In this document: positions 23,329 to 43,915 of the stretch, piece after piece | How positions within the stretch are numbered: the first letter of the stretch is position 1 | Layout: each line of letters begins with the position of its first letter | From: an uncultured Gammaproteobacteria bacterium | Lineage (GTDB): Bacteria > Pseudomonadota > Gammaproteobacteria > Francisellales > CACEW01 | Length of the DNA: 64,000 bases | Assembly (NCBI GenBank): GCA_902563055.1 | Contig: CACEWE010000003.1 | Location: 1,450-65,449, forward strand | Reading direction: 5' to 3' | Made by a program: the position numbers and the translations under genes | Notes under the pieces: model-generated | The model's input: only the letters and a program-made list of their open reading frames with translations | Databases searched by the model: none | What the model was told of the DNA's origin: nothing

Positions 23329-25656
23329 ATGTCCGATACCACAGCATTTGATTTTTTAGCTCTTAAAGACCAAGAAGCTTTAAGCTTACTTAAAGAATAT
23401 GGCATAGCCTTAAGTCTTGAAGAAGCCAGAGAGATTCAACAACAACTGGGCAGGCCTTTAAGCTTATCAGAGTCAATTTTATGGGGCATTCAAGGTTCTG
23501 AGCATTGTTCTTATAAAAGTTCTAGAAATCATTTGGCAACTTTAAACACCAAGGGGCCGCACGTGGTGATCGGCGCCAAGGAAGACGCGGGGGTTATTCG
23601 CGTTGCACAAGATGATCAAGGTGCACATTATTGCATTGCTATCAGTCATGAAAGCCATAATCATCCCTCGCAAATTGTACCTTTTGAGGGTGCGGCAACC
23701 GGAATTGGTGGTAATGTGCGCGATGTTTCTTGTATGGGGGCTACGGTTATTGCTAATGCAGATAGCCTGCGCTTTGGTTTAATTGATTCGGCGCAAACCA
23801 AATGGATTCACGATGGGGTGGTTAGTGGTATTGCTTCTTATGGCAATGCTATTGGCGTGCCCAATGTTGCTGGAGATGTGGCGTATCATCCTTCTTATCA
23901 AGATAACGCCTTAGTAACCGCGGTTACTATTGGTGCGGTAAAGGAATCTGATATTATTCATTCTTATGCGCCTAAAAATGCACATGGTTATGTGTTGATC
24001 TTAGTGGGCAAGGCTACTGATAATTCTGGTTTTGGTGGGGCGAGTTTTGCTTCCTTTGATTTAGACCAAGACGATGCACAGGCCAATCGCGGTGCGGTGC
24101 AAGAACCCAATGCTTTTTTAGGTCAGGTGCTTTTAAAAGCCAATGCCGATTTATGTGCACAAATTTGTAAGGATCAGTTGCAAGACCAGGTTGGCTTTAA
24201 GGATTTAGGCGCCGGTGGCATTGCCTGTGCCTCGGTGGAATTGGCTGAAGGCGGCGGATATGGTGCTACGCTTCATCTAGATCACGTTCATGTGGCGATG
24301 GAGCAGCTCAATCCCTCAGTTGTTTTGTGTTCAGAAACCCAAGAACGTTATATGTGGGTAGTGCCAAAAACGCTCAAGCAGCGGGTTTTGGATCATTATA
24401 ACCGTACTTATGATTTGCCTGCCATTTCCAAAGGCGCTTGCGCGGTGGAAGTGGGACATATTACAGATGATGGGCAATACCAAGTTCATTATCAAGGTGC
24501 TTGTTTAATTGATGCTCCGGCAAAGCTTATTACCAAGGGTTTGGTGTATGATCGTCCCTTTACTTCTGTGCCCAAGCCTAAGAAGCAACAAGCACCAAAA
24601 CTCTATACTGATTTAGCCCAGCTTCTATATACGCTATTGGCTGATCCAAGTGTAGCAAGTGATAAATGCATTGCAGAGCAATATGATAAACAGGTCGGGG
24701 GACGGGTTATTATTGAGCGTATGAGAGCAGATGCAGGATTACTTGCACCCTTTAATGATGCACGTTTTCCCGATAATATCGCCAAAACTGGCGTGGCGCT
24801 CGCTTGTGCCCACAAGCCCCATTACAACGCGATTGATCCCTACTGGGGCACAGCTTTGGCGGTGGTGGAGTCGATGTTGAAAGTGGTAAGTGTTGGAGCA
24901 AAACCTTTGGCACTATCAGATTGCTTATGTTTTGGAAATCCGGAGGATCCTCAGCAGATGGCGGCATTTGTAGCAGCGGTTAAAGGTTTAAAAGATGCGA
25001 GCAATCAGTTACATTTGATTGATTATCCCAAGGCGAGCATCCCTATTGTTGCTGGTAATGTTTCCTTATACAACCAAAGTAAAACTTCTGCAGTGGTTCC
25101 AAGTGCGATGATGGCGTGTGTTGGCAATATGCAAGATGTGGATAATAAATTATTACCCGCCGTGGATGAGACAGAGTTAATGCTTTATATGGTAGGCGCA
25201 AGAAGTGGCCGTTTGGCCGGCAGTTTATTCCATCAATATGCCGGGCGTGATGATGGCGGTATTTTAAATATCGACTATCAAGATATCAATCAACAGATGA
25301 GGTTTATGGATCAAATGACCACAGAGCGGATGCTTAAAGCATGTAAGATTATTGAATCTGGTGGGCTTGCGCTTGCCTTAATAAAAATGGCGCTTTTGGG
25401 GTCCTGTGGTATGGTTTTGGAAGATCCATTTGACGATTTTGAGCCTTGGTTAGATGAGACACCAGGTTTTGTATTAGCGCTAGATAAAAAAAATCAAGAT
25501 GAAGTTGTGGCACGTGCTAAAGCAATGCAAATAGATATACGTTATTGTGGTAAAACTGCAAAGGATCCGAGTATTATTTTTCCATTTGCCCATATTGACC
25601 TTTCCCATGCGCGCCAAGTTTGGCGTCAGGGCTTGCGTCAAAAAATAGCCCATTAA
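23329..25656 (+). CDS. purL: Phosphoribosylformylglycinamidine synthase, short PurL-type synthetase subunit
   Basis: 775 aa. The conserved N-terminal SEHCSYKSS motif, and AIR-synthase-like duplicated domains. Confidence 0.88.
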   Translation: MSDTTAFDFLALKDQEALSLLKEYGIALSLEEAREIQQQLGRPLSLSESILWGIQGSEHCSYKSSRNHLATLNTKGPHVVIGAKEDAGVIRVAQDDQGAHYCIAISHESHNHPSQIVPFEGAATGIGGNVRDVSCMGATVIANADSLRFGLIDSAQTKWIHDGVVSGIASYGNAIGVPNVAGDVAYHPSYQDNALVTAVTIGAVKESDIIHSYAPKNAHGYVLILVGKATDNSGFGGASFASFDLDQDDAQANRGAVQEPNAFLGQVLLKANADLCAQICKDQLQDQVGFKDLGAGGIACASVELAEGGGYGATLHLDHVHVAMEQLNPSVVLCSETQERYMWVVPKTLKQRVLDHYNRTYDLPAISKGACAVEVGHITDDGQYQVHYQGACLIDAPAKLITKGLVYDRPFTSVPKPKKQQAPKLYTDLAQLLYTLLADPSVASDKCIAEQYDKQVGGRVIIERMRADAGLLAPFNDARFPDNIAKTGVALACAHKPHYNAIDPYWGTALAVVESMLKVVSVGAKPLALSDCLCFGNPEDPQQMAAFVAAVKGLKDASNQLHLIDYPKASIPIVAGNVSLYNQSKTSAVVPSAMMACVGNMQDVDNKLLPAVDETELMLYMVGARSGRLAGSLFHQYAGRDDGGILNIDYQDINQQMRFMDQMTTERMLKACKIIESGGLALALIKMALLGSCGMVLEDPFDDFEPWLDETPGFVLALDKKNQDEVVARAKAMQIDIRYCGKTAKDPSIIFPFAHIDLSHARQVWRQGLRQKIAH

Positions 25657-25674: not shown

Positions 25675-26313
25675 GTGGAAGGTTTTCAAAAACAGTTTTT
25701 AGATTTAGCACTGACATCAAAGGCATTATTGCTGGGAGATTTTACTTTAAAGTCGGGAATAAAAAGTCCGTATTTTTTTAATATTGCCCCTTGTTTGTCT
25801 AATGGTGCAAGGTTGCATCAGTTGGCAGATTGTTATGCGCAGGCTATGGTGCATTTTGACCTTGATCAGGCAATGATTTTTGGCCCTGCTTATAAGGGCA
25901 TTCCTTTGGTTACTGCATTAGCAATGGCATTTTATCAACGTTATGAGAGGGCCTTGGATTTTGCGTTTAATCGTAAAGAAAAAAAAGATCATGGCGAAGG
26001 TGGTAGTATTGTGGGTGCTGCATTATCTGGTTCCGTGGTTGTGGTAGATGATGTTTTAACCAAGGGTAGTGCCTTTAGCCAAACCCTTGCCTTATTAAAG
26101 CATTATCCTGATGCCAAGGTGCAGGCTTTGCTGGTTGCGCTAGATCGTCAAGAAAAAGCAGCTTCAGGCGCAACCGTTTCAGAGACTTTAATGGCAGAGC
26201 ATCACATAGATATTTTCAGTATGGTAGGTGTTGATGCGCTCATTACGTACCTTAAACAGCATCATGGCGATAAGGCCATTATTGAAACATTAGATGCTTA
26301 TAGGCAGTGTTAA
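25675..26313 (+). CDS. pyrE: Orotate phosphoribosyltransferase
   Basis: 212 aa. FTLKSG...SPYFFN N-terminus and PRPP loop VVVVDDVLTKGSA. GTG start. Confidence 0.9.
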   Translation: MEGFQKQFLDLALTSKALLLGDFTLKSGIKSPYFFNIAPCLSNGARLHQLADCYAQAMVHFDLDQAMIFGPAYKGIPLVTALAMAFYQRYERALDFAFNRKEKKDHGEGGSIVGAALSGSVVVVDDVLTKGSAFSQTLALLKHYPDAKVQALLVALDRQEKAASGATVSETLMAEHHIDIFSMVGVDALITYLKQHHGDKAIIETLDAYRQC

Positions 26314-26314
26314 T

Positions 26315-26908
26315 ATGGCCCATGAAGGTAGGGAAAATCCTATGGCACGGCATTTACAAGCGGTGCATTCTAGTAGTTTGTCCACAGCTGCTAAGTCTAT
26401 GTTGCAGCCCAAAAGAGATACTTTGGTGGGGCGCTTGGGTGAAGAGGCAAAAGAGAAACTTGCATTAAAGCACTTTAAACCTATTTCTTTGGAGGGTGAT
26501 GGGACTGATCAAGCTTTTTCTGGGCGAATTCCTATGGGCAAGACGATGTTGCCAAGATTAAACTTTTCAGGTCTTTCCGGTGAGGGTTCAAAAATACTTG
26601 GTGATGGGGCTTTATTAAAGAGAAGGGAGTCTCAAGCCCCATCATTGCTTAATAGACCTTTGGTATTAGAAGGGAAGGAAGCCTCATCTGCTTCGTTAAA
26701 AAATACTAAAAGTATGAGCAGTATAGGCGATTGTTCTGCCAAAAATCCTGTAGGGAAATTGCGCCCACTTGGTATAGTTCCACCAAACGCGTTGGGCTCT
26801 CGTGCTCTAGGGAAAGGGCGTCCATTTAATACAGTTGCGCAAAACTTGATTGGCGGTCATGGTCAAAACGCAGCTGTTTGTGATGCTGGTGCTGGTTGTG
26901 GCTTATGA
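26315..26908 (+). CDS. Low-complexity Gly/Ser/Pro/Leu-rich protein, member 1 of the island family
   Basis: ATG lies 1 nt after the pyrE stop. No globular-domain signature. Shares DQAFSGRIPMGK...LP and GKLRPL motifs with the next gene. Contains KRRES. Confidence 0.55.
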   Translation: MAHEGRENPMARHLQAVHSSSLSTAAKSMLQPKRDTLVGRLGEEAKEKLALKHFKPISLEGDGTDQAFSGRIPMGKTMLPRLNFSGLSGEGSKILGDGALLKRRESQAPSLLNRPLVLEGKEASSASLKNTKSMSSIGDCSAKNPVGKLRPLGIVPPNALGSRALGKGRPFNTVAQNLIGGHGQNAAVCDAGAGCGL

Positions 26909-27133
26909 TAAAAAGGTTTGTTGTTCATGTTTATGAACTTCAGTAATGTGCTGTATTGAAAGCTTGGCTTTATATTTTTTCTATTATATGCCAAACCAAC
27001 TTGCAGTATTATTATAGATTCGATAGAATACTTCAAAAAATCGGAGGGTACTGTTTGGGCTTATGCCCATGAGGGACACTTACCCTTGCGCAATATAGTC
27101 AATTTATACTAAAAATAATTAAGGAGAGCCTTC

Positions 27134-27646
27134 GTGGTGTTTTCTGATAGTTTTTCAAAAGCAGCTCAAGGCGATGCTTTAAAAGCTCAAGGCGATGCTT
27201 TAAAACAGCATCGTCCAAGTACGAGAAAGCCATTGCGTATAGATGCTCCTGGCCAAGCTTTTACAGGGGCGCCCAGAGGAAAGTTAAGCCCATTAGCTGC
27301 GCACAATCTTCCAAAACTTCCCTGTGAAAGATACCCGACAGCTTCGGGTAGTGCGAATTTAGCTGAAAGAGTTAACAATGAGAGGGCTCGTTTAGAATTT
27401 AGGGCCTTATTAGAGCAAAATTTTAAAAAGAATAGTGGGGCTTTGCCAAAACAATTTGAGAGGCAATCTGATGATACTTGTCAATCCCTTTTTAGGAATA
27501 ACACTTTGCCGCCCCTTGATAGAAGAGAAAACACTCCTGCTCGTAAGGAGCCTTTAGGTCATAGTGTTTTTGCTGTATTAGGACCACCGCTTGAGGAAAA
27601 TGATAGGCTTGATAGGGACTGTAGCCAAGGGGCTAATGCATTGTAA
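27134..27646 (+). CDS. Low-complexity protein, member 2 of the island family
   Basis: GTG start after AAGGAGAG. GQAFTGAPRGKLSPL parallels member 1. A perfect 21-bp duplication encodes AQGDALK twice. Confidence 0.6.
   Translation: MVFSDSFSKAAQGDALKAQGDALKQHRPSTRKPLRIDAPGQAFTGAPRGKLSPLAAHNLPKLPCERYPTASGSANLAERVNNERARLEFRALLEQNFKKNSGALPKQFERQSDDTCQSLFRNNTLPPLDRRENTPARKEPLGHSVFAVLGPPLEENDRLDRDCSQGANAL
27164..27205 (+). repeat. Perfect 21-bp tandem duplication (x2), in frame
   Basis: gctcaaggcgatgctttaaaa occurs twice in direct succession. Confidence 0.95.
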
Positions 27647-27707
27647 AGTGATACGCTGTTTATCTATTTTTTTGCTTGGAAATTTATGGATTCTATTACC
27701 CCTGTCT

Positions 27708-28118
27708 TTAGGTTTTTAAAGCGCAGCTATTATATTTTTGATAGTAACTTGGGGTGCAGAAGGTAATAGACCCATATGGGGCTGGATTCTGGCTATAGCT
27801 ATAGGCGAGCTGGTGGTCAATATAACCATGGATTTGGATTTTTTTTCCGGCTAAGCTAATTCCAAAAAATGCATTGTGCTCTTGGCTTGGAATTTCTATC
27901 ACCCGGTAATAGTTATCCTGGTATACCAAAATATTTGTTTGTTTAAAAGCAGCAATATCATAGGATTTTTCACTTGTATAGTCGAGATATCTGATAGGAT
28001 GTGCTAGATGGTTGATAATCGTGAGGGGGGTAAGCTTTTGGCTAAAGGCAAGGATTGGGACATTACAAAAAAGTATAATTACAAGACTAGTTACCATATA
28101 GTAGGATCTTTTGTTCAT
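27708..28118 (-). CDS. Small secreted or membrane-anchored protein of unknown function
   Basis: ATG at 28118 after GGGAG. N-terminal hydrophobic signal or anchor YMVTSLVIILFCNVPILAFS. It is the only minus-strand gene in the island. Confidence 0.5.
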   Translation of the reverse strand: MNKRSYYMVTSLVIILFCNVPILAFSQKLTPLTIINHLAHPIRYLDYTSEKSYDIAAFKQTNILVYQDNYYRVIEIPSQEHNAFFGISLAGKKIQIHGYIDHQLAYSYSQNPAPYGSITFCTPSYYQKYNSCALKT

Positions 28119-28218
28119 ATGTAGCTCCCTAGCCATAGAGGCTTGTTTATTATAATAGGCTTTTACCCTAGAGTGTTTTTGTTCATAGTGCAAGTGTGGC
28201 TAATTATTGTATGAAATT

Positions 28219-28242
28219 TTATTGCATATAATATTGCAATAA
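28219..28242. promoter_or_regulatory. 24-bp palindrome (8-bp arms TTATTGCA/TGCAATAA) enclosing TATAAT; candidate operator over a -10 box
   Basis: Reads TTATTGCA TATAATAT TGCAATAA. Lies in the divergent intergenic region between 27708-28118 (-) and 28274 (+). Confidence 0.35.
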
Positions 28243-28273
28243 AAAGCCATAAACTAATCATATTGTTTTTTAA

Positions 28274-29251
28274 ATGTACTTATTTGAGATGCTCAGTAAA
28301 CATTTTCTTGAGCTTAGTAAGCAATTGCTTATGATTGTGAAAAAAAATAATCAACAAGGAATGCAAATGTATAGTGGTATAGGCGAAGAAGGCATGTCTG
28401 GGAGTGTGGAGAGTTTGTCTGAAAGTACGTCGATTGAGCTTCCAAATTATCCAAAAGTTAAGGTTCCTGGTTTATCTGTTGCAGTGCGGTGTCCGGAGGA
28501 TGCAATAACAGACTCTCCAAGTTCTGCTAGAGGGGATTTAAGTGCGCGTTCTTCTCGTCTTGGCTCTGATGGGGCTTCTGGTGAGGGTCCAATTACGCAT
28601 TCTCCTCTTAATTTATCTGTTAGTATGCCACCTCAGTTAAATACAACTCCTGTTAAATGTGAAAATGCCATTCCTTTTCAATCTCCACAAAATAAATCTG
28701 CTGTGCAAGGCCAAATTGCGCCCGGCTTGAATGCCACCTCACCAAAAAGTGCTTTGCCCATTTCTGCTGCTGATGGTGCTTTTGATCCAGGATCTGCTGG
28801 TATAGCTAGAGAGCAATTAGGGCATGGCGAAGAGGAAGCAGCCCCTGAATTAAGTTTATTGTTTAATTCTGTTGAAAGGCATCAGGCAAATGAAAAACTA
28901 CAAGCTTCTAAACAAGGAGAGAAACATCCACTTGAAGGGGGACGAAGTCCCAGTCCAGAGCGAAAGAGACGGAGGTCTATAGACTCCTCAGGAAGGTCTT
29001 CTGCTTTTTCTCCTCCGCTTTCTTCTCCAGGTTCAACTCAGTTTCAAATGGATTCATCAGAAGACTCCCTTTCACCAAAAGCTCTTGTTAGAGAAGATTC
29101 TCTAGATTCTATGTTATCTGGATACTCAGGATCTTCAACAGGGTCTTCATCTAGCGAAAGACCTCTAACAGAAAATGAAATATGGATGCGAGACTTTTAC
29201 AATAATCCAAGAAGTAATACTGATTATAATACAAGTATGGGGCACAATTAG
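28274..29251 (+). CDS. Ser/Pro-rich low-complexity protein, member 3 of the island family
   Basis: 325-aa maximal ORF. An alternative ATG at 28361 has the better RBS (CAAGGA). Motifs DGAFDPG, RKRRRSIDSS, STQFQMDSSEDS and a Ser-rich tail. Confidence 0.6.
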   Translation: MYLFEMLSKHFLELSKQLLMIVKKNNQQGMQMYSGIGEEGMSGSVESLSESTSIELPNYPKVKVPGLSVAVRCPEDAITDSPSSARGDLSARSSRLGSDGASGEGPITHSPLNLSVSMPPQLNTTPVKCENAIPFQSPQNKSAVQGQIAPGLNATSPKSALPISAADGAFDPGSAGIAREQLGHGEEEAAPELSLLFNSVERHQANEKLQASKQGEKHPLEGGRSPSPERKRRRSIDSSGRSSAFSPPLSSPGSTQFQMDSSEDSLSPKALVREDSLDSMLSGYSGSSTGSSSSERPLTENEIWMRDFYNNPRSNTDYNTSMGHN

Positions 29252-29254
29252 TGA

Positions 29255-29431
29255 CGGGTGTCTGTAGACCCGGGAAGTTCCTTTGCTTTTTCTCCTTCTG
29301 ATGAGATTCAATTCTCAACATCTCTGGATAATCCTCAAGGGCAAGGAAAGAAGCCTATATTTCAAGATAATTCAATTGTATCATCTATGTCTTGTTCCTC
29401 GTCTTCTTCAAGCGAACATGATTTTATGTAG
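29255..29431 (+). pseudogene. In-frame continuation after a TAG-TGA double stop; a diverged second copy of the preceding C-terminal module
   Basis: Same frame as 28274-29251. 58 open codons (SFAFSPSDEIQFSTSLD...SCSSSSSSEHDFM*) parallel SSAFSPPLSSPGSTQFQMDSS...SSTGSSSSERP. Confidence 0.45.
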
Positions 29432-29713
29432 CTATGAAACTTTTACTTTGCTGTGATCTTATCACATGTATGGATATAACCTTATAATTACTGTTTTTTA
29501 GTGTTTTTTTTTTGCTGAATTTTTCAAAATAGTGAATTGAAATATAAGAACCGGTTTTTACAGAGTGCTTGTTTCAACACAGTTAGTATAAATATGATGC
29601 AAAATAAATGTGATACTGCTTTAATTTGCGCAAATTTACTTTAAAATGTGTGATAGATATAGGGCATTGGTGTATAGTGCTTTTTTAGATGGATTACCTA
29701 TAAAGGAAAGAGG

Positions 29714-30748
29714 ATGTCAAACCGAATTAAAAATAAAGGCTACTTAAAACTTGTGCAAAATAAAAGAGCCTTGGTTCGTCAAAAAGTTAAAGGAATAAGA
29801 TTTTTATGGTCTCAATACAAAAGTAATATAAAGTCTAAAGAATACGTGGATAATGGTATTTTAAAACTTCTTCATAGTGCAAATGTGATGTCGCAAGTTT
29901 TAAGATTATTGCCCAATGATCATGTTCAACTTTTATCTCTTGCTGAAGAAAAAGTAGATATAGCCTTATGGCTCATGCTTTTTAAAATCAAAAGCGATAG
30001 TGTATCGATTCCTTTAACATGGATAGATGATGATTTTAAGCAACTGGTTCTTAACGCAGAAAGCCAGCTTTATCAGGCAAAAATTATAAAATTATTTCGT
30101 GGTGTATTGGCTGCGATAACAGATGAAAAATTTAAAGAAATTTTTCATCTGCCTCAGTTAGAACGTTTTCTTGAAACGATAAAAAAAACGAATGTTTCAG
30201 ATGAGAGTGAACAAGAAAAACATGAACTAATTGAGAAGCTAGCTAAAATTATTAGGGAAAAAGAACTCTTTGAGAAAACTGAAGTAGTTCCAGGTAATGT
30301 GCCAGAGGGTGAGAGTGACTTATCTAAGCTTTTAATACATCCACAGATTAATAGAATAAGCGAGAGTAGCTTCCAGCCTGAATCTTCTCCACAAATGCTA
30401 AGGCATGAAGAGGAGCAGGAGGATGAGGAGTGGACATTAGTAGAAGACGAAAATGACGATGATTACAAAGAGAAACAAGATGCTTTTGTGGGAATTATAG
30501 CAGAGCGATTGAGGATAGATAGAACGCTTCCTAATGGTGCTCAGCGCTCTTTTGCCCGGCCTATACCAGGAAGTCAGGGGGCCTTTAACGGAGATGAGGT
30601 GGGTGATTCGTTCGATACGGAGAGTTTTAATTCTACAAAAGGAACATGTAGCAGTAGTGGTACATTTGCATCTACTCTAAGTTCTCATGGATCATTAAGC
30701 TCTGAAGGTTCAGGTGAGGATGTGCAGTTTGGAATGTCTATTAGATAA
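29714..30748 (+). CDS. Helical N-terminal domain plus acidic/Ser-rich tail protein, member 4 of the island family
   Basis: 344 aa with RBS GGAAAGAGG. EEQEDEEWTLVEDENDDD (LIR-like), SQGAFNG, and the C-terminal GEDVQFGMSIR. Confidence 0.65.
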   Translation: MSNRIKNKGYLKLVQNKRALVRQKVKGIRFLWSQYKSNIKSKEYVDNGILKLLHSANVMSQVLRLLPNDHVQLLSLAEEKVDIALWLMLFKIKSDSVSIPLTWIDDDFKQLVLNAESQLYQAKIIKLFRGVLAAITDEKFKEIFHLPQLERFLETIKKTNVSDESEQEKHELIEKLAKIIREKELFEKTEVVPGNVPEGESDLSKLLIHPQINRISESSFQPESSPQMLRHEEEQEDEEWTLVEDENDDDYKEKQDAFVGIIAERLRIDRTLPNGAQRSFARPIPGSQGAFNGDEVGDSFDTESFNSTKGTCSSSGTFASTLSSHGSLSSEGSGEDVQFGMSIR

Positions 30749-31077
30749 TTATTTCAAAAAATCCTTTTAGTTGTATATCTTCTTTTATTTTTTCCTGGCT
30801 TGAGAGTCTTGTCTTTAATCTTTAAAGTAGTGTCAGTCTTCAGGCTATATTTAATGGTGTGCTTTGTTTTTGATTTACGCTCATGAAGTTTTCATTGTGC
30901 AAAATATTGATTCCTATTGTTGTTTTATTTTTAATAGCTTAATGCAAGCCAAAATGCTTGTATTATATGCTATCATATTGTTTTTATTTAAACCAAAAAT
31001 ATACTTTTTCTTGCTTTGAGTCTGTTAATTACGGTATGGTATATGGTAACAATCTAAACTTATAGTAAGGAAATGAT

Positions 31078-31458
31078 ATGGCACATGGAAGATCTGATGA
31101 GGCATCAAAAGAAGCTGTTGGGGGTGGCGTTGCTGGAGATAAAAGCGCAGTTGATAATGGGGCTCGAGCCCTTTTAATTACGCCGGTAAGGAACTTTCCT
31201 GCCTACTCTAGATTATCGCCTGCTCCTTTTACTGCAAGTCTACTAGATGGTGAGGGTGCAAGTCGACCAGATGGTGAGGGTGCAAGTCGACCAGATGGTG
31301 AGGGTGCAAGTCAGCCAGATGGTGATGTTGCAAGTGAAGATTTTGATAGTCAGCCTACTAACCCTAGTCAAGAACACCCGGATCATCAGAGGCTATGGGA
31401 CATGTCTATTGATGGTTCACAGAAATCTGATATAGTTTTAGAGTCACAATCACAATAA
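31078..31458 (+). CDS. Small acidic repeat protein, member 5 of the island family
   Basis: 126 aa with RBS AAGGA. DGEGASRP x3 repeat. LWDMSIDGS motif near the C-terminus. Confidence 0.6.
   Translation: MAHGRSDEASKEAVGGGVAGDKSAVDNGARALLITPVRNFPAYSRLSPAPFTASLLDGEGASRPDGEGASRPDGEGASQPDGDVASEDFDSQPTNPSQEHPDHQRLWDMSIDGSQKSDIVLESQSQ
31246..31341 (+). repeat. 24-bp tandem repeat: two perfect units, a third with two substitutions, then one degenerate unit, in frame
   Basis: gatggtgagggtgcaagtcgacca at 31246, 31270 and 31294 (the third with two substitutions), then a degenerate unit. Confidence 0.95.
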
Positions 31459-31600
31459 AAAATGTAATAAAATGAAACTATTTTTCTTGTCTTATATATT
31501 GTCAGCTTGGCTTGATTTTAAACGTGAACACTAGTTTTTCTTGTGTTACATTTTGTTTTTACGTATTATCTGGCAAATTTAACTTAGTATGGAGTAAGAA

Positions 31601-32125
31601 ATGCCTCTAAAGAAAACGATAACAACGAAAAGTAAGCCAATGAACATAGCTACTGCAAAAGATAGTGATCAAAGGTATCAAACCCCCGAGGCAAGATCTC
31701 AAGTAGCACCTAGTGCTCCAGAAAATTTGGAGTTGCCGCCACTTCATCCTGATGGTAAATCTTATAGAGAAGAACTTAAGCGTGAGCTAGCATATAGAAG
31801 GATACATCGAGTTGCAGCACAAGGCGGTAGTTTTGATCGCAAACTTCAGTTTAAGTTAGATGGTTTTTCAGATTCTAGTTCTTTTGGTTCTGAGTCTAGT
31901 TCATTAGGGAAAAGAAGTAGAGGTGGCAGTATAGGCAGTAGAGATAGTCTTGGTAGTAGAGATAGTCTTGGTGCTGCAAGCGATGAGCTGACTTCATCTT
32001 ATCCAGATACTTCTGATGATGAGTCCTGTGCAAAAAAAAAAAGATGTCCCGCAAACTTGCAATCTATTTTTAGTGGAGTATCTTTAGATGTAAATGATAG
32101 TGAGGGGTTTGGCCCAACACAATAA
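31601..32125 (+). CDS. Ser-rich low-complexity protein, member 6 of the island family
   Basis: 174 aa with RBS GGAG. QGGSFDRKLQFKLDGFSDSSS, GKRSRGGSIGS, SRDSLG x2, and an acidic tail TSDDES. Confidence 0.6.
   Translation: MPLKKTITTKSKPMNIATAKDSDQRYQTPEARSQVAPSAPENLELPPLHPDGKSYREELKRELAYRRIHRVAAQGGSFDRKLQFKLDGFSDSSSFGSESSSLGKRSRGGSIGSRDSLGSRDSLGAASDELTSSYPDTSDDESCAKKKRCPANLQSIFSGVSLDVNDSEGFGPTQ
31937..31972 (+). repeat. Perfect 18-bp tandem duplication (x2), in frame
   Basis: agtagagatagtcttggt occurs twice, encoding SRDSLG SRDSLG. Confidence 0.95.
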
Positions 32126-32378
32126 GATCGCAGCACTTTCTATACCTCTATCAAAAGTAGCAGTATATACGCGCTAAATGTATCAGAGAGCGCCTGAAAA
32201 CATTTGCATTTCTATTTTTAATACATTCTATTGCCTTAAAATTGTAACTTTTCATAAAGTTATGACCTTTCTGTGCATGAAAAATATGAGTGCTATAACG
32301 TGAAGTATAAAAAATACTTGCAATTCAGTAAATTGATATATATCATATTATATAGTTATTTTGACGTAGGTTGTTATT

Positions 32379-32870
32379 TTGAGTGGTTGTATAAGTCTAT
32401 TGAATGTACTTGAAAGCGTTAATGTGGCTGTTACTAGTAAAGGTCAGAAAGTTATTGATGTATTTAAAGAAAATGCGCAAGAGAGGGGCTTAGGTACGCT
32501 TGCTGCCGGGACGGCAGCTAAAAGTGCACTAAATTCATTAACACCATTTTTTTTTCATGAAATACAGAGGCTAGTTTCAACAAAAGAATTTATTAAACTT
32601 AAAGAAAAATACAATGCGCAGGTGGATTTAAGTGGCGATGCACTACAAGAAAGTAGGAAGGAATTGGCTCTTAAACATAATAGTGTTTTAAAACAATTAG
32701 AATCGCTTTTTATTTTTTCAAAAGAGTTTGTTAGTATTGTTGATGAAACATGGGAGAAATTTCCATATAACGATGCAGTAAGAAATATGTTTAAAGATTA
32801 CTTTGATTGTTTAAAAAATGAAACTCAAAAATTACAATTAGAGCAGCACAGTATGGATGCGTTTTTTTAG
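32379..32870 (+). CDS. Helical protein of unknown function (last clear gene of the island)
   Basis: 163-aa ORF with a TTG start and weak RBS. No recognisable motif. Confidence 0.45.
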   Translation: MSGCISLLNVLESVNVAVTSKGQKVIDVFKENAQERGLGTLAAGTAAKSALNSLTPFFFHEIQRLVSTKEFIKLKEKYNAQVDLSGDALQESRKELALKHNSVLKQLESLFIFSKEFVSIVDETWEKFPYNDAVRNMFKDYFDCLKNETQKLQLEQHSMDAFF

Positions 32871-33232
32871 CAATTGACTATCCAGGGGTGGAAAGTCATT
32901 TCATTAATATTCAATTTTTTTTGGCGATGCCTTATATTTGGTTATTATACTTTATATTTGCTTTAATATGAACCAATAGGGCTTGATCTTATTGTTTTGT
33001 AGACGGCTTTTATGTTATCTTGCTTACTTTTATTTTATCAGGAAAAATGATGCATGGATCAAAAAAAGTTACGGTTTCTCCTTCTGCAAATACGCAAGGT
33101 GAAAAGCAAAACCAAAATAAAAGTCAAAACGCACATACATTAAGCCAAGGGGCTGCATTAGCTATTGTCCCTGCTGTTGTCCTTCGTGGCTCAATTATTG
33201 AGCCGAGGAAAAAAAAAGCTGTTCCAAAGACT

Positions 33233-34423
33233 TCAGGGCTGGCTCCTACGACATAGTAATGAAAGCGCAAGCACAAGTATACTCATACCAAAGGCAAATA
33301 CTATAAGCGCTAAATGTATCGGATGAGAACCGGCAAATGGGCCAAGGTTAGCTGCTAGGCTGGCGCCAATAAAAGAAATGAACCCAAATAAAGCGCTTGC
33401 CGATCCAGCATTTTTTGAATTGGTACAGTCCAGTGCCAAAGCGCTGGCGGTTGCTCTAAGCAATCCTATTGCAATATAAATAAGATAAAGTGGCAGTATT
33501 ACACTTACAAGGCTTGGCTGGCTAAAATGGTTCCAGGTATAAAGCAAGACTGATCCAAGCATCATGAATAGACCTGCAATGGCTAAAAGGGTTTTTTGAG
33601 GAATAACTTTTATAATAGTTGCAATATTAAAACCGATGATTAAAAAAGCAGTTGCAACAATAATCATGATATATCCATATTCAAGCGCAGTGCATTTTAA
33701 AAAACCAATCAATAAATAGGGAGAGCAGGCTAAAAAAGTAAAGAGTGCGCTATAAGATAAGCAGCTTATAAGACAGTAGCGAAGGTATTGACTGTTGCTA
33801 AGCAAGTTCTTATAAGTAACAAAGAGCGGTTTTAGATTAAGTGCTTGGGTATTGGTTTGTAGCATAGATTCTTGGAAATTTGTTGTAATAATTAATAGAA
33901 AAAATAGCGATAAGCTAGCAATAATCATAAAGTCTAGTTGCCAAACCCCATAGTTTGCAACTATAGAGCCAATCATTGGAGCAGCTGCTGGCATAAAGCT
34001 TAAAAGGCCCAAATAGATCCCTAATACTTTTACTCTTGCCTCTTGTTGAAAACTATCACGAATGATTGCAAAGCCATTAATCAAAAGGCCACAGCAACCA
34101 ATCGATTGTAGGAGGCGTCCAAGTAGTAAAATTGAAAAATAGGGGCTGAAAACTATCAAGATAGACCCTGTAAAGACCAGCATTAAAGAAACGACTTGGG
34201 TTTTTTTACGACCAAAAAAGTCCGAGATTGGCCCAAAAATTAGTTGCATTACCGCAAGACCAAATAAAAAGATACTAATCATCCAAGTAACATGGTGAGT
34301 GTGATATGTGTGCGCGATGCTTTGTAGTGATGGGAGATAAATATCATTACATAAGGGTGTAATTCCATTGCAATATACCGCTAAAATAGCAATAAGAAAG
34401 GTGTTTCTTTTGTGAATAAACAT
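33233..34423 (-). CDS. MFS transporter (Bcr/CflA drug-efflux-like)
   Basis: 396 aa with a 12-TM profile. MFS loop motif GPISDFFGRKK. Confidence 0.8.
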   Translation of the reverse strand: MFIHKRNTFLIAILAVYCNGITPLCNDIYLPSLQSIAHTYHTHHVTWMISIFLFGLAVMQLIFGPISDFFGRKKTQVVSLMLVFTGSILIVFSPYFSILLLGRLLQSIGCCGLLINGFAIIRDSFQQEARVKVLGIYLGLLSFMPAAAPMIGSIVANYGVWQLDFMIIASLSLFFLLIITTNFQESMLQTNTQALNLKPLFVTYKNLLSNSQYLRYCLISCLSYSALFTFLACSPYLLIGFLKCTALEYGYIMIIVATAFLIIGFNIATIIKVIPQKTLLAIAGLFMMLGSVLLYTWNHFSQPSLVSVILPLYLIYIAIGLLRATASALALDCTNSKNAGSASALFGFISFIGASLAANLGPFAGSHPIHLALIVFAFGMSILVLALSLLCRRSQP

Positions 34424-37344: not shown

Positions 37345-37965
37345 ATGCCAGCAAAGACCATTACATTATTGCAACAAAAGGGTGGCTCAGGCAAAACCAC
37401 CACTTCTGTAAACTTAGCCGGTGGCTTAAGTGAGCTTGGTTACAAGGTGGTCATTGCCGATATGGACAAAGACAAGCCTGATGCGTGGTCTTGGGCAATG
37501 AAATCTGACAAGCTCAAAGATATGGCTATTCAAGTTAACGAAAAACAAGCGCGTGAGGTTATCACTGGTCTCAAGGACCAATACGATTACATTATTGTTG
37601 ATACACCGCCAAATTTTCAGACCGCAGCTTTAAAAGCAGCATTGTTAGCAGATTTAGTGGTAATACCAACTGCGCCAAGTGGTATGGATTTATCGGGTTT
37701 AATGGAAGCTAAAGAATTGGCATTAACTGCGGGTCGGCCCTATCGCTTATTGGCCAATCGTATTGCAAAAAATACCGTTATGAGCCGCTCTTTGCTTGAT
37801 GTCTTAAGAGATGGTGGGGATGCTTTTGAAATTGCCATTCCACAAAGCGTAAAATTTGTTGAGGCTGAGAGTGAGGGGCTTTACATTGGTGAGTATGCAC
37901 CCCAGTGTCCAGCGCATCATCATACTCAAGCGCTCGCAAAAGAAATCGTAGCATTTTTTCAATAA
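37345..37965 (+). CDS. parA: Small ParA-family partition ATPase (type Ib-like, 206 aa)
   Basis: Deviant Walker A QQKGGSGKTTT and IIVDTPP. Short length, with no N-terminal extension. Confidence 0.8.
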   Translation: MPAKTITLLQQKGGSGKTTTSVNLAGGLSELGYKVVIADMDKDKPDAWSWAMKSDKLKDMAIQVNEKQAREVITGLKDQYDYIIVDTPPNFQTAALKAALLADLVVIPTAPSGMDLSGLMEAKELALTAGRPYRLLANRIAKNTVMSRSLLDVLRDGGDAFEIAIPQSVKFVEAESEGLYIGEYAPQCPAHHHTQALAKEIVAFFQ

Positions 37966-37976
37966 GGAAAACAAGC

Positions 37977-38876
37977 ATGACTAAGAAATTTTTATTTGGC
38001 CGCAAGCGTACGGGTGAATTAGGTGATGGTGGCGGTGCTGTCGTTATGGAAGACAAGAAAGAGAGTTTATTATCCTTAAAGCTTCAAGCCTTATCTGATG
38101 ATGCACAAAACCGTGGCGTTTTGAATATGTTAGCGCTAGATGCTTTAGCGCCGGACGCTAATCAACCACGTAAAGTTTTTAAAAGCATCGATCAACTAGC
38201 AAAGAGCATTGAAGAAAATGGCATTATTCAGCCTTTGGTGGTGCAAGAGCAAAGTGCTGGTAAGTATACCATTATTGTTGGCGAACGGCGTTATTGGGCT
38301 GCAAAGCAACTTAAGCTTGAGGCCGTTCCTTGTATAGTACGCAGTGATCTTGGTCAAGATCAGGCTAAGCTTTTAGTATTACAATTGCTTGAGAACGATC
38401 AGCGTGAAGCAGTTTCTCCTTTGGAAGAGGCAGAGGCACTAGCTGTGCTTGCTAAAGATTATACTCAAGGACAGATGGCCAAAGAATTAGGCCGTGATGC
38501 AGGCTGGATATCCATTCGTCTTGGTTTATTACAAGCGAGTGAGCGGATACAAAACTTGGTAAAAAATGGTCTTATTGAAGATGTGCGTACACTCCATGAG
38601 CTGCGTAAGTTTGAAACCGACCACCCCAAGAAGGCCCAGGATCTTCTTGCTGCAATAGAAAAAAATGAAGTTTCGGGTTCTTACCGTACAGTGATTGCTA
38701 ATTTGCGTAAAAAATCTGCCAAGGGTAAAAGCGAACCTATTAGTCCTGCTATTACCAAAATAGAAAAACAGGGTGATAAGCTACTTTTACACGTGGCTAA
38801 AAAGAAACGACCTGTGAGCTATACCATAGACCAAAAAGTATTGGTGCAATTTTTGGCGCAAGTAAGTTACGAATAA
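37977..38876 (+). CDS. parB: ParB/Srx-domain partition protein
   Basis: ATG at 37977 after AAGGAAA. PDANQPRK, IIQPLVV and IIVGERRYWAA motifs. HTH region QGQMAKELGRDAGWIS. Confidence 0.8.
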   Translation: MTKKFLFGRKRTGELGDGGGAVVMEDKKESLLSLKLQALSDDAQNRGVLNMLALDALAPDANQPRKVFKSIDQLAKSIEENGIIQPLVVQEQSAGKYTIIVGERRYWAAKQLKLEAVPCIVRSDLGQDQAKLLVLQLLENDQREAVSPLEEAEALAVLAKDYTQGQMAKELGRDAGWISIRLGLLQASERIQNLVKNGLIEDVRTLHELRKFETDHPKKAQDLLAAIEKNEVSGSYRTVIANLRKKSAKGKSEPISPAITKIEKQGDKLLLHVAKKKRPVSYTIDQKVLVQFLAQVSYE

Positions 38877-41351: not shown

Positions 41352-42701
41352 ATGGCGTCAGTTAATTCACATTTAAAAGCGGCAAAAAAACAAAGTGCAA
41401 TGATTGAAAAAACCATTGCAAGATTAAAAAAATGTCGATTTGATACCATCGCTACTTCTGGTATATACAGTGGTGATTTTGCAGCAGCTTATGCACAAGG
41501 CTCGATTATAGAGCCAAGTTTTTTATCTTCTGCACAGCATTTTGCAGATAGTAAGCAAATGGAAGCGGCATTAAGTTATCAAATGCCGGCCTGGGCATAT
41601 AGTCGTATTGCCAATCCGACTATTTTTTATTTGGAGCAGACTTTATCTTTATTAGAATCCTACGGTATGGAAGAAAATGCCAGTTGTTGTGTGTGTGCTT
41701 CTGGAATGGCTGCGATTTGTTCAGCGATTGAGCCTTTATTAGTGCCCAATAAGGCAGGAGATCCGATTAATTTTGTTTCATCTTCTCAGGTTTATGGTGG
41801 AACCTTTATGCAATTTACCACGCGGCAACAAGAACAGGGCAAAAAGGTGCGTTTTGTTGCGCCTTCTGAGAATATAGAAACGTGGGCGCAACAGATTGAT
41901 CAACACACCCGGTTTGTTTTTATTGAGGTGCCGTCCAATCCCAATTTAAGTGTGTGTGATATCAAGGCTTTGGCAGCGCTTGCCCATAAGCACCATATTC
42001 CTTTGCTTGTTGATGCCACTGTGGCTACGCCGGCACTGCTTAGGCCCTTGTCACTGGGTGCAGATATTGTGATACATTCTTTATCTAAATCCATTGGCGC
42101 CTCGGGTATGGCGATTGGTGGGGCGCTTATTAGTCGCAAAAACATAATTGCACATTATTTGGAAAATTCGCAGCGGGAGGATTTTGCAAGCTATGTGAAG
42201 TTATGGCCTAACCGTGATAATGGTCCCTGTTTGGCACCTTTGCAGGCAAGTTTGATTCTCAATGATTTGCGTACTTTGAGAATGCGTATGGCTAGTTTGA
42301 GCCACCATACTTTGACAGTGGCGCAATTTTTAGCGCAACATAAAAAGGTTGAGTCGGTGTATTATCCTGGTTTAGCCTCGCACCAAGGACACGAACTTGC
42401 AAGGGAGATGTTTGGTTTGGTTGACAGTTCAGTAAAGGCCTACGGTCATTTATTATCCTTTACAGTTAAGGGGGGTAAAAGGGCGGCTATGGCAGTTTTA
42501 GATCGTTTAGAGCTTATTTGGCGCGCAACGGATCTAGGGCGGATTAAATCGGTTGCGACCATTCCGAGTATTTCTACCCATCAACAGCAAGGTGATGAGG
42601 GCAGAGCGCTTTCTTCTATTGAGGATGGTTTAATTCGCTTGAGTGTTGGCAATGAGCATCCGGCGGATATTATAGCTGATTTATCGCAGGCTTTGAGTTA
42701 A
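41352..42701 (+). CDS. Cys/Met-metabolism PLP-dependent enzyme (O-acetylhomoserine sulfhydrylase-like)
   Basis: 449 aa. PLP-lysine region HSLSKSIGASG and a family-typical C-terminus LIRLSVGNEH. Confidence 0.8.
   Translation: MASVNSHLKAAKKQSAMIEKTIARLKKCRFDTIATSGIYSGDFAAAYAQGSIIEPSFLSSAQHFADSKQMEAALSYQMPAWAYSRIANPTIFYLEQTLSLLESYGMEENASCCVCASGMAAICSAIEPLLVPNKAGDPINFVSSSQVYGGTFMQFTTRQQEQGKKVRFVAPSENIETWAQQIDQHTRFVFIEVPSNPNLSVCDIKALAALAHKHHIPLLVDATVATPALLRPLSLGADIVIHSLSKSIGASGMAIGGALISRKNIIAHYLENSQREDFASYVKLWPNRDNGPCLAPLQASLILNDLRTLRMRMASLSHHTLTVAQFLAQHKKVESVYYPGLASHQGHELAREMFGLVDSSVKAYGHLLSFTVKGGKRAAMAVLDRLELIWRATDLGRIKSVATIPSISTHQQQGDEGRALSSIEDGLIRLSVGNEHPADIIADLSQALS
42627..42701 (+). repeat. 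Left copy of the 75-bp direct repeat (last 24 codons plus stop of the PLP-enzyme gene)
   Basis: Aligns without gaps to 43841-43915. 11 of 75 nt differ, and 22 of 24 aa are identical. Confidence 0.9.
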
Positions 42702-43840: not shown

Positions 43841-43915
43841 GATTTAATTCGCTTGAGTGTCGGTAATGAACATCCGGCGGATATCATAGCTGATTTATCT
43901 CAGGCGCTTGGCTAA
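43841..43915 (+). pseudogene. Displaced second copy of the PLP-enzyme gene 3' end (DLIRLSVGNEHPADIIADLSQALG*)
   Basis: Homologous to 42627-42701, and the homology ends exactly at the stop codon. No upstream coding sequence. Confidence 0.85.

Follow-up and report, generated by a model that had tools for sequence, protein, structure and literature searches.

A strain-variable island of lineage-restricted, mostly disordered, motif-bearing and possibly host-directed proteins in an uncultured marine gammaproteobacterium

The window analysed here, a stretch of 64,000 nucleotides, comes from a deep-branching, uncultured marine gammaproteobacterium. A 7-kb interval flanked by pyrE and an MFS transporter gene holds eight to ten ORFs that are coding and real (Table 1). 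All ORFs that the initial annotation had placed there were found. By exact look-up, the NCBI record calls ORF1 to ORF6 and ORF8 as genes; ORF7 is absent among the called products with either of two tried starts. Codon statistics are of the coding type for all island ORFs, each in its own frame only (ORF1 has a codon LLR of +0.24, and -0.63 and -0.89 in the remaining frames). The ORFs are long for a genome of 40% GC, their GC is 0.32-0.47 versus 0.26-0.33 in the spacers, their GC3 is below that of housekeeping genes, and every tandem repeat inside island coding sequence is a multiple of 3. The AT-rich upstream regions described earlier measure 142-329 bp at 26-33% GC. Ribosome-binding sites had been described as well, and Shine-Dalgarno-like sequences do precede 27134, 29714, 31078 and 31601; 28274 and 32379 have none. 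Both flanks are conserved. Nothing named shares more than 50% identity with PyrE, and Pfam Pribosyltran is listed, marked weak, for the Tara copy; pyrE (dN/dS 0.12) matches Tara contig L008 at 96% nucleotide identity as far as window position 26319. The MFS gene is 94-95% identical to its Tara copies at the nucleotide level (dN/dS 0.11).

Table 1. Features of the island and its flanks (window coordinates).
Feature	Position	Strand	Remarks
pyrE, left conserved flank	25675..26313	+	translation PyrE-like
ORF1, 197 aa, G/L/S/A-rich	26315..26908	+	called gene (NCBI record); singleton cluster
ORF2, 170 aa, GTG start	27134..27646	+	called gene (NCBI record)
ORF3, 142 aa, small Tyr-rich protein	27708..28136	-	called gene; two Tara variants
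ORF4, 320 aa, 18% Ser	28289..29251	+	called gene; frame open from 28274
57-codon module behind double stop, in the ORF4 frame	29258..29431	+	not a called gene
ORF5, 344 aa	29714..30748	+	called gene (NCBI record)
ORF6 upstream block (promoter / 5'UTR / RBS)	30957..31071	+	paralogous to 31486-31593
ORF6, 126 aa	31078..31458	+	called gene (NCBI record)
ORF7 upstream block	31486..31593	+	paralogous to 30957-31071
ORF7, 174 aa	31601..32125	+	codon LLR +0.16 in frame
Decayed copy of MFS gene 3' end (33258-33337)	32121..32200	+	local alignment, blastn
ORF8, 163 aa, helical, not low-complexity	32379..32870	+	called gene (NCBI record)
Window-specific 391-bp segment	32841..33231	+	stands where L001/L002 have about 60 bp
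MFS transporter gene, right conserved flank	33233..34423	-	MFS_1 and Sugar_tr (Pfam) on Tara copies

ORF1, which contains DQAFSG and GKLRPL, starts 1 nt past the pyrE stop; in strain L008 the same ATG opens a different, unrelated ORF of at least 144 aa. With AAGGAG 7 nt 5' of its start, ORF2 encodes a protein that is 76% unfolded by prediction and contains GQAFTG, GKLSPL, an acidic LEENDRLD block close to the C-terminus and AQGDALK, encoded by an exact 21-nt repeat (x2); its C-terminal 46 codons have a dN/dS of 0.38 against L007. The odd one out is ORF3, which lies outside the motif set, as it is not disordered and carries neither of the two motifs treated below. Its N-terminus is a signal or transmembrane segment and its dN/dS is 0.29; judged by these ratios, purifying selection acts on ORF3 and the ORF2 tail. 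ORF4 contains DGAFDPG, a basic RKRRR cluster, SSAFSPP and TQFQMDSS, and has a Ser-rich tail. Its C-terminal 208 codons show a dN/dS of 1.33, and in Tara contig L006 it is split by a 1-nt deletion within a G4 run. The module that follows it (SFAFSP, IQFST and a Ser run), kept in L006, is a diverged duplicate of the ORF4 C-terminal module, with an 88% DNA repeat between 28991-29014 and 29273-29296. In ORF5 the N-terminal ~190 aa are all-helical (structure model pLDDT 48, helices only), and the tail is disordered and acidic/Ser, contains QGAFNG and ends in VQFGMSIR.

The upstream blocks of ORF6 and ORF7 align with a Smith-Waterman score of 27 (shuffle mean 12.8, z=8), and that of ORF6 also matches the block 5' of a 68-aa gene in L002 (blastn E=2.5e-7). 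ORF6 holds 4.3 copies of a 24-nt repeat (GEGASRPD, 31233-31335) and an SQ-rich tail ending in IDGSQKSDIVLESQSQ; its allele in Tara strains has other repeat units (L001 equals L002 plus one copy) and the tail LDGSQDSLQFQLSLSQ. ORF7, 84% unfolded by prediction, contains GGSFDRKLQFKLDGF, an exact 18-nt repeat (x2) and KKKR, and ends in SEGFGPTQ. The copy of the MFS 3' end (local alignment score 23, shuffle maximum 17; blastn E=8e-4), beside which 32034-32058 matches 33209-33233 collinearly, marks an older island/MFS junction. Of the island genes, only ORF8 can be aligned with an orthologue that other strains carry at the corresponding site (181 aa, 72% amino acid identity). It is truncated by the 391-bp segment, which also holds most of a 78-codon ORF, 33020-33256, that is not a called gene and whose tail (KKK..SGLAPTT) is similar to those of ORF7 and the 181-aa ORF8 allele.

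About five of the island proteins are Ser/Gly/Pro-rich and predicted to be disordered. The fraction of these three residues is 0.29-0.34 in ORF1, ORF4, ORF6 and ORF7, versus 0.17 in housekeeping proteins, and FoldIndex gives ORF2, ORF6, ORF7 and the C-terminal halves of ORF4 and ORF5 as unfolded. The initial annotation had described low-complexity Ser/Gly/Pro-rich proteins built on a disordered scaffold; the first part fits those four proteins and the second most of the island proteins, but neither fits ORF3, a signal-peptide protein, or the helical ORF8. Inspection by eye shows no obvious signal peptide or transmembrane helix in any motif-bearing protein. No island protein has a match in Pfam, NCBIfam, PADLOC, PHROGs or PDB, in agreement with the earlier remark that no enzymatic or structural motif could be recognised. 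When ORF5, the largest ORF, was searched exhaustively with HMMER against 1.84 billion representative proteins, it matched only itself, ORF8 matched itself and one Tara allele only, and the island protein clusters are singletons. The proteins are lineage-restricted, with no relatives detected in the effective searches, which in the large protein collections covered those other than the five most Ser-rich. Nor do they demonstrably form one paralogous family, as had been considered: all pairwise BLASTP E-values are at least 0.69 and Smith-Waterman z-scores at most 3.5. Paralogy is demonstrable only piece by piece: it links the upstream blocks of ORF6, ORF7 and the 68-aa gene of L002, the 29258 module and the tail of ORF4, and the tail of ORF7 and that of ORF 33020, along with the duplicated MFS 3' end.

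What remains recognisable amid diverging surroundings is a pair of short motifs, small-F-[STDN]-[GP] and hydrophobic-Q-F-x-hydrophobic in a Ser/Asp/Glu context. The motif strings quoted earlier are all present in the translations. GKL[RS]PL does recur in ORF1 and ORF2, but these are its only two occurrences, and LWDMSID in ORF6, once listed as an aromatic-motif site, is probably not equivalent, as LQFQL of other strains aligns with DIVLE (aligned manually from the tails, the upstream block being shared). Measured against composition-matched shuffles, repeated with local shuffles, [LIVT]QF occurs in 4/10 window ORFs (0.78 expected, P=0.006; P about 1e-4 for the extended form [LIVT]QFx[hydrophobic]) and AF[STDN][GP] in five (0.15 expected, P<1e-4). 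Both hold under local shuffles (6/13 proteins, 0.2-0.9 expected, P<=2e-4) and are 16-42x denser in the island than in the 17,400 residues of the other ORFs of the window. The AF motif lies N-terminal to the QF motif in 5/6 QF-bearing proteins, and the corresponding locus of Tara Oceans strains has the QF motif in different genes. Among variant-strain proteins new to the initial annotation, [LIVT]QF is found in 2/3 (P=0.002) and AFSP in one (P=0.04), although these may be orthologues and are therefore not fully independent. The signal lies at the protein level, given that the DNA surrounding the motifs shows no conservation. Patterns set beforehand thus exceed both kinds of shuffle, but hypothesis-free discovery (dipeptide, reduced-alphabet and BLOSUM-seed) found nothing above shuffles and picked out neither motif, so that the statistics depend on patterns picked by eye.

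Between strains the island is mosaic, with breakpoints at about 26319, 28261 and 32110, and its flanks are 94-97% identical. With a flank dS of only 0.12-0.27, the unalignable segments must be replacements and not drift. Turnover of the genes takes place through tandem duplications, expansions of in-frame repeats, indels and whole-allele replacement between strains, and at least one step of island growth was an insertion beside the MFS gene that duplicated its 3' end. Island genes have dN/dS ratios of 0.3-1.8, versus about 0.1 (0.07-0.13) in the flanks. Two exceed 1, the C-terminal part of ORF4 and ORF8 (1.77; 49/163 residues differ), the latter with an intact reading frame despite 12% nucleotide divergence, a dS of 0.10, similar to or slightly under that of the flanks, and a nine-fold higher dN. 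Relaxed constraint also fits ratios near 1, and the L006 frameshift, the double stop, the uncalled ORF7 and the truncated ORF8 are signs of decay. With content that is mosaic between near-identical strains, the locus behaves like host-interaction loci.

A bona fide eukaryote-type RING-H2 protein matching RNF165/Arkadia (E=1.7e-10) is encoded 27 kb from the island and kept in four Tara variants; the presence of such a RING E3 in the same genome suggests a eukaryotic host. Further host-associated context in the window comes from an orphan of 1636 aa and a DUF2608 protein. No dot/icm gene or secretion-system gene of any kind was seen within it, and the link to type IVB substrates had been drawn from composition alone. 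In likeness to the Dot/Icm (type IVB) repertoires and plasticity zones of Legionella and Coxiella, lineage-restricted, often orphan proteins are clustered in a variable region, gain and loss between strains are fast, a eukaryote-like domain (here the RING protein) occurs elsewhere in the genome, and the C-terminal tails are polar, Ser-rich and acid-leaning, with few basic residues. DotM, however, binds Glu-rich E-block C-termini, a type to which the island tails do not clearly belong (PMC5802825). Further differences from Dot/Icm genomes and effectors are the lack of dot/icm genes in the window, an organism not assigned to Legionellales or Coxiellales, and the lack of homology to any annotated effector.

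Some bacterial effectors, for example those of the CagA/Tir type, Salmonella SteE (PMC12287357) and Brucella NpeA (PMC11253601), work by mimicking eukaryotic short linear motifs in disordered regions. The island proteins are likewise small or disordered and non-enzymatic, conserving only short motifs while the rest diverges, but their motifs fit none of nine eukaryotic linear-motif patterns tested (LIR, RVxF, clathrin box, FFAT, SIM, B56, PIP, DEF and AP2). Compared by traits, the organism resembles Candidatus Comchoanobacterales (UBA7916) and other marine host-associated gammaproteobacteria in its marine origin, occurrence in Tara metagenomes, GC of about 39-42% and eukaryote-like proteins (PMC9418006). 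A Coxiella-like T4BSS is reported for Candidatus Comchoanobacterales, and Tara data include marine gammaproteobacteria of 39-42% GC with such a system (PMC9418006). Whereas the Comchoano lineage is metabolically reduced, purine/pyrimidine, LPS-transport and Mla genes are all retained here. The decayed MFS copy recalls islands inserted at gene 3' ends with target-end duplication; unlike in those, no integrase, tRNA or mobility gene lies in or adjoining the island, and the duplicated stretch, at about 70% identity, is short and old. Two further small insertions in the window show the same target-duplication style more clearly and carry unrelated cargo.

Could the interval instead be a recombination-prone spacer that gathers decayed or newborn ORF fragments under little or no selection, its shared motifs being duplication leftovers? 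We consider this unlikely, though the dN/dS of about 1.3-1.8, the split ORF4 in L006, the double stop ahead of the in-frame module, the uncalled ORF7 and ORF 33020, the truncating 391-bp replacement, the low GC3 and the null result of unbiased motif discovery would all suit it. ORFs of 126-344 codons far exceed chance length at a stop frequency of about 6% (estimated from base composition), only the own frame of each ORF scores positively in codon statistics, and four starts have an RBS. Moreover, ORF8 stays open across its divergence with flank-like or slightly lower dS and nine-fold higher dN, ORF3 and the ORF2 tail are under purifying selection, and the motifs survive in unalignable surroundings, their DNA not being conserved. 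That the motif sharing reflects composition and patterns picked by eye, the ORFs being linked by position only, is less probable still, indeed very unlikely: patterns fixed in advance exceed global as well as local shuffles, are concentrated in the island, recur in sequences new to the initial annotation and keep the order AF before QF, even if the unbiased scans stay within shuffles and no pairwise alignment exceeds z=3.5.

Genuine proteins might also act in the bacterium or at its surface, as disordered regulators or as stress/hydrophilin-like, phage-related or envelope proteins, and the locus would vary under influences other than a eukaryotic host, such as phage pressure. Long Ser/Pro/acidic disordered proteins with basic clusters such as RKRRR and KKKR are unusual in the bacterial cytosol, PADLOC and PHROGs give zero matches, the motif-bearing proteins lack obvious signal peptides or transmembrane segments by eye, and the RING E3 suggests a eukaryotic host. 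We regard this as improbable too, while noting that no secretion system is seen in the window, defence and surface genes also occupy hypervariable islands, ORF3 has a signal peptide, and the two other target-duplicating insertions carry unrelated cargo.

Our tentative preference, held with somewhat less than even confidence, is for a strain-variable island of lineage-restricted, mostly disordered, motif-bearing proteins that are putatively exported and host-directed, most plausibly towards a eukaryotic host. A specialised secretion system, with type IVB as the leading putative candidate, would export them into the host cell. The motifs would be functional short linear elements, which could dock a host protein, for example via an added beta-strand; those close to the C-terminus could instead form part of an export signal. 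Diversifying selection imposed by the host would then drive the turnover of the island.

The likeliest reading of the island between pyrE and the MFS transporter gene, if a tentative one, is that of a hypervariable locus whose disordered, motif-bearing proteins are secreted and directed at a host. All of the open reading frames (ORFs) listed for it in the initial annotation are present, and most of them coincide with gene calls in the record of the 91.7-kb NCBI contig out of which the 64-kb window was taken (see table). Every island ORF scores positively in codon statistics when read in its own frame, and strongly negatively when read in either of the others. At third codon positions the GC content ranges from 0.21 to 0.38 (housekeeping genes, 0.36), with all but ORF3 lying below the housekeeping value. 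Three of the genes contain in-frame tandem repeats, with units of 21, 24 and 18 nt. The AT-rich upstream regions described earlier are seen as spacers of 142-329 bp with 26-33% GC, and the ribosome binding sites (RBS) ascribed to most of the genes hold for four starts, which are preceded by good Shine-Dalgarno sequences. The island ORFs are genuine genes, or were so until very recently. A single broken giant gene was considered and rejected: seven ORFs lie in one frame, yet the spacers are rich in stops in that frame. A promoter motif common to all island genes was likewise rejected, with AGCTTGGCTTKA showing no enrichment and only the ORF6 and ORF7 upstream regions being significantly alike.

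Coordinates of the island genes and of other features of the window
Feature	Positions	Strand	Length	Remarks
1636-aa ORF	4364-9274	plus	1636 aa	in a 31-39% GC stretch
tRNA	20243			sole tRNA of the window
PurL gene	23329-25656	plus	775 aa	short, split type
pyrE	25675-26313			island flank
ORF1	26315-26908		197 aa	gene call in NCBI record (exact look-up)
ORF2	27134-27646		170 aa	gene call in NCBI record (exact look-up)
ORF3	27708-28136	minus	142 aa	gene call in NCBI record (exact look-up)
ORF4	28289-29251		320 aa	gene call in NCBI record (exact look-up)
29258 ORF	29258-29431		57 codons	no match among called products (exact look-up)
ORF5	29714-30748		344 aa	gene call in NCBI record (exact look-up)
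ORF6	31078-31458		126 aa	gene call in NCBI record (exact look-up)
ORF7	31601-32125			no match among called products (exact look-up)
ORF8	32379-32870		163 aa	gene call in NCBI record (exact look-up)
33020 ORF	33020-33256			no match among called products (exact look-up)
MFS transporter gene	33233-34423	minus		island flank
ParA-like ATPase and ParB genes	37345-38876	plus		ParB with KorB domain
Cys/Met PLP-enzyme gene	41352-42701
63-nt direct duplication	42629-42691 and 43843-43905		63 nt	92% identity
Orphan ORFs of 1.2-kb insert	42995-43441 and 43544-43774	minus
Poly-gamma-glutamate system gene	56890-58029
300-nt direct duplication	57682-57981 and 58674-58973		300 nt	95% identity
TRASH-domain gene	58164-58538
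Orphan ORF beside RING gene	59169-59606	plus
RING-H2 protein gene	60061-60531	plus	138 aa	called product from 60115
Orphan ORF beside RING gene	60701-61078	plus

The island proteins are orphans, and no enzymatic or structural motif had been recognised in them earlier; in agreement, they find no match in Pfam, NCBIfam, PADLOC, PHROGs, PDB or plasmid records. An exhaustive HMMER search of 1.84 billion representatives with ORF5 returned only ORF5 itself, the sole relative of ORF8 is one Tara Oceans allele, and neither Pfam and NCBIfam nor these large-collection searches revealed homology to a known effector family. The called Ser-rich ORFs form singleton clusters or cluster with Tara variants only. 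Ser, Gly and Pro together make up 0.29-0.34 of four island proteins, against 0.17 in housekeeping proteins. The low-complexity disordered scaffold proposed earlier applies to ORF2, ORF6 and ORF7, which are mostly unfolded by FoldIndex, and to the C-terminal halves of ORF4 and ORF5. The N-terminal ~190 residues of ORF5 are all-helical and ORF8 is helical; AlphaFold models of the two have low confidence (pLDDT 48-49, from a single sequence for ORF5 and two sequences for ORF8). ORF3, a small signal-peptide protein on the opposite strand under purifying selection (dN/dS 0.29), is outside the group formed by the other island ORFs.

The rest of the window has gammaproteobacterial gene content (lptABC-kdsCD, mlaFEDC, murA, hsp15, pur and pyr genes). 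PyrE is at most 50% identical to anything beyond its own species, its best named matches being spread across several orders, and a PyrE search of genome contigs from species representatives gave distant matches only. A scan of metagenome contigs with the MFS protein yielded no close relative. Short split-type PurL, as encoded here, is unusual for Gammaproteobacteria and is consistent with a deep-branching lineage. The ParA-like ATPase and ParB are encoded amid chromosomal housekeeping genes, and GC skew is positive over the entire window.

What recurs among the island proteins is a pair of short motifs: an AF motif (a small residue, then F-[STDN]-[GP]) and a QF motif (a hydrophobic residue, Q-F, any residue and a hydrophobic residue). 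The motif strings quoted in the initial annotation are all found in the sequences, and in a MAFFT alignment of the island proteins the AF motif is the only aligned part. Against composition-matched shuffles, AF[STDN][GP] occurs in 5 of 10 window ORFs where 0.15 are expected (P<1e-4), [LIVT]QF in 4 of 10 where 0.78 are expected (P=0.006), and the longer form [LIVMT]QF.[LIVMFT] reaches P ~1e-4. Local shuffles within 10-25-residue windows, which preserve local composition, agree with this result (6 of 13 proteins, where 0.2-0.9 would be expected; P<=2e-4). The two patterns are found 2.4 and 3.7 times per 1000 residues in the island, as compared with 0.06 and 0.23 in the other long ORFs of the window (17,400 residues). 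Of the six proteins with a QF motif, five have the AF motif N-terminal to it, and the motifs lie in or beside segments predicted to be unfolded (FoldIndex, per-residue lines judged by eye). The fairest test is provided by different genes at the same locus in Tara Oceans strains, being data unseen in the initial annotation: LQF is present amid Ser/Asp residues in two of three (as SLQFQLSLS and SLQFSFKEE; P=0.002), and AFSP in one of three. The motifs are kept in these unalignable variant alleles, and between the window and a related contig (L006) they are preserved except at the wildcard position. A DNA repeat was rejected as the origin of the QF motif, since conservation does not extend to the DNA surrounding the QF sites. 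One earlier assignment, LWDMSID of ORF6 as an instance of the C-terminal motif, is probably mistaken: the tail of the ORF6 allele in other strains, LDGSQDSLQFQLSLSQ, was hand-aligned to IDGSQKSDIVLESQSQ, which places the QF site of the allele opposite DIVLE. ORF6 and this allele have the upstream block in common. The ORF6 tail is dense in SQ dipeptides, with about five among its last 37 residues, and a 30-residue stretch of the allele has four. Two Tara contigs carrying ORF6 alleles (L002 2996-3202 and L001 5088-5312) have unequal numbers of Gly/Pro-rich repeat units, although they are near-identical in other respects.

Comparison with the Tara contigs shows how the locus varies. Its flanks are 94-97% identical in nucleotide sequence (dS 0.12-0.27, dN/dS 0.07-0.13), and homology breaks off sharply inside the island at ~26319, 28261 and 32110. 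In one strain an unrelated ORF of at least 144 aa starts from the exact ATG of ORF1, and two strains have other Ser-rich genes in place of ORF5-ORF7. Given so little neutral divergence, the segments that cannot be aligned must be recombination replacements rather than products of drift, and the island is a mosaic. Where orthologues do align, selection ratios are raised, with dN=0.18 and dS=0.10 for ORF8 (ratio 1.77) and dN/dS of 1.33 in the C-terminal half of ORF4. In a further contig (L007, 1-260, minus strand), the sequence equivalent to window position 28262 onward, to the right of the divergent spacer between ORF3 and ORF4, is not ORF4 but an ORF fragment, ...NSAYIIKPEGARRMIKLVEDYGLWPNDP..., which in our reading of the translation resembles a family-25 glycosyltransferase in its C-terminal portion. 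L002_141, a gene at the position of the ORF5 tail, was rejected as its orthologue. The similarity is suggestive and not significant (P=0.05 with global and 0.33 with local shuffles), with an AF-to-QF spacing of 45 versus 46 residues and one Lys and one Cys coinciding in a hand alignment.

Signs of DNA-level duplication come from three pairwise links only. ORF6 and ORF7 have homologous 110-bp upstream stretches, RBS included (z=8), and the same block precedes a 68-aa gene in L002 (E=2.5e-7). The 29258 ORF lies in the ORF4 frame after a double stop and repeats the C-terminal module of ORF4 (S-x-AFSP, x-QF-x, then a Ser run), the DNA of the two matching at 88% over 24 nt in the same frame. In the third link, the last codons of ORF7 and the next 80 bp represent a decayed duplicate of two neighbouring pieces, the end of the 33020 ORF and the 3' end of the MFS gene; the match of 32121-32200 to 33258-33337 is weak (~70% identity), collinear with a second match, and amounts to a target-end duplication at the junction. 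The decayed copy implies that ORF7 formerly adjoined the MFS gene; later material would have been inserted between them, duplicating the 3' end of the target. The common stretch of ORF1 and ORF2 is just 27 nt at 74%. Pfam and NCBIfam reveal no integrase or mobility gene in the island, the sole tRNA of the window lies well apart from it and Rfam yields only tRNA, and a window-specific 391-bp segment was rejected as a repeated element. Two clearer insertions of the same target-duplication style are found elsewhere in the window. At the poly-gamma-glutamate system gene, a direct duplication of the 3' end flanks a 0.99-kb insert with the TRASH-domain gene; the insertion restored the target 3' end. 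At the Cys/Met PLP-enzyme gene, a 3'-end duplication flanks a 1.2-kb low-GC insert with two orphan ORFs and no integrase nearby.

It is quite improbable that motif sharing is an artefact. Such an account would agree with hypothesis-free discovery, which under three schemes (gapped dipeptides, reduced-alphabet patterns, and BLOSUM-seeded motifs with a local-shuffle control) yielded nothing beyond chance, leaving only the predefined patterns significant in the shuffle check proposed earlier; the out-of-sample recurrence in the Tara alleles speaks for the motifs, which are real enough for follow-up. Significant overall similarity between the proteins is lacking, the lowest BLASTP E-value within the island being 0.69 and Smith-Waterman z-scores not exceeding 3.5 against composition shuffles, and these comparisons do not support one paralogous family. 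That the island is a gene graveyard or cradle is unlikely. A 1-nt deletion splitting ORF4 in one strain can be set on its side, alongside the double stop before the 29258 ORF; on the other stand the codon statistics.

A bacterial-internal or surface role is also improbable. Under the preferred reading, the genes are established as real orphans, as are disorder, motif recurrence, mosaicism and raised dN/dS, and we infer export, host targeting and motif function. No dot/icm genes occur among the window ORFs scanned, and the AF and QF instances fit no consistent class among nine eukaryotic motif patterns (LIR, RVxF, clathrin box, FFAT, SIM, B56, PIP, DEF, AP2); RVxF is fitted by RKLQF in ORF7 only, and S-x-x-F fits three of the six QF sites. 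The last 25 residues of the island proteins contain 15-20 polar or small residues (12 in ORF8) against 11.9+/-2.7 in housekeeping proteins, 0-3 basic residues against 3.5, and 1-5 Asp/Glu. These polar, acid-leaning, basic-poor tails appear compatible with the type IVB signals suggested earlier. They have no clear Glu-rich block of the kind recognised by DotM (PMC5802825), and acidic clusters are short only (LEENDRLD, KEEEKK, SEAED). Another gene of the window codes for a RING-H2 protein that is membrane-anchored and has a C-terminal finger (CVICQE...CAHLFHRACLKEWF...CPLC); it matches eukaryotic RNF165/Arkadia RING domains (E=1.7e-10) and has four near-identical variants in Tara contigs. The presence of this eukaryote-type E3 ligase is a strong pointer to a eukaryotic host; a DUF2608 protein is encoded as well. 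Tara data are known to include host-associated marine gammaproteobacteria that have a similar GC content and Coxiella-like type IVB systems (PMC9418006). The RING-H2 gene lies within a 34% GC stretch alongside other orphan ORFs, of which the one before it has an internal 50-nt repeat (80% identity) encoding VVPNPS-x-DE and the one after it is Gln/Glu-rich and coiled-coil-like with ENLEQLQ repeats. The 1636-aa ORF, which starts with an (SA)n run, has no match in Pfam, NCBIfam, PADLOC, PHROG or PDB and no exact called product.

The preferred reading of a secreted, host-directed repertoire can be taken further, to a proposal that as a whole we regard as doubtful: the island ORFs would be the first members of a class, so far undescribed, of disordered proteins that are secreted and target a host, in an uncultured marine gammaproteobacterial lineage. 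The defining feature of the class would be a motif in two parts, small-F-[STDN]-[GP] and, 4-47 residues further on, hydrophobic-Q-F-x-hydrophobic; its docking partner may be a conserved protist protein or the export machinery. Diversity would be maintained by whole-allele exchange at a dedicated chromosomal hotspot, which might grow via insertions that duplicate the 3' end of a neighbouring gene. The initial annotation, which saw mimics of short linear motifs here, is partly confirmed in its observation and partly supported in its interpretation. The orphan proteins are new and the kind of locus is already familiar. If the proteins are not secreted, the island, set between two housekeeping genes, is a clear case of extreme allelic replacement, where genes may also arise and decay. 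If they are secreted, they form a compact natural allele set in which almost all has changed but two short motifs, and this in a marine lineage. Such contrast pinpoints functional linear motifs, and the natural allele series isolates two candidates. Marine planktonic bacteria would then keep hypervariable effector hotspots resembling those of Legionella.
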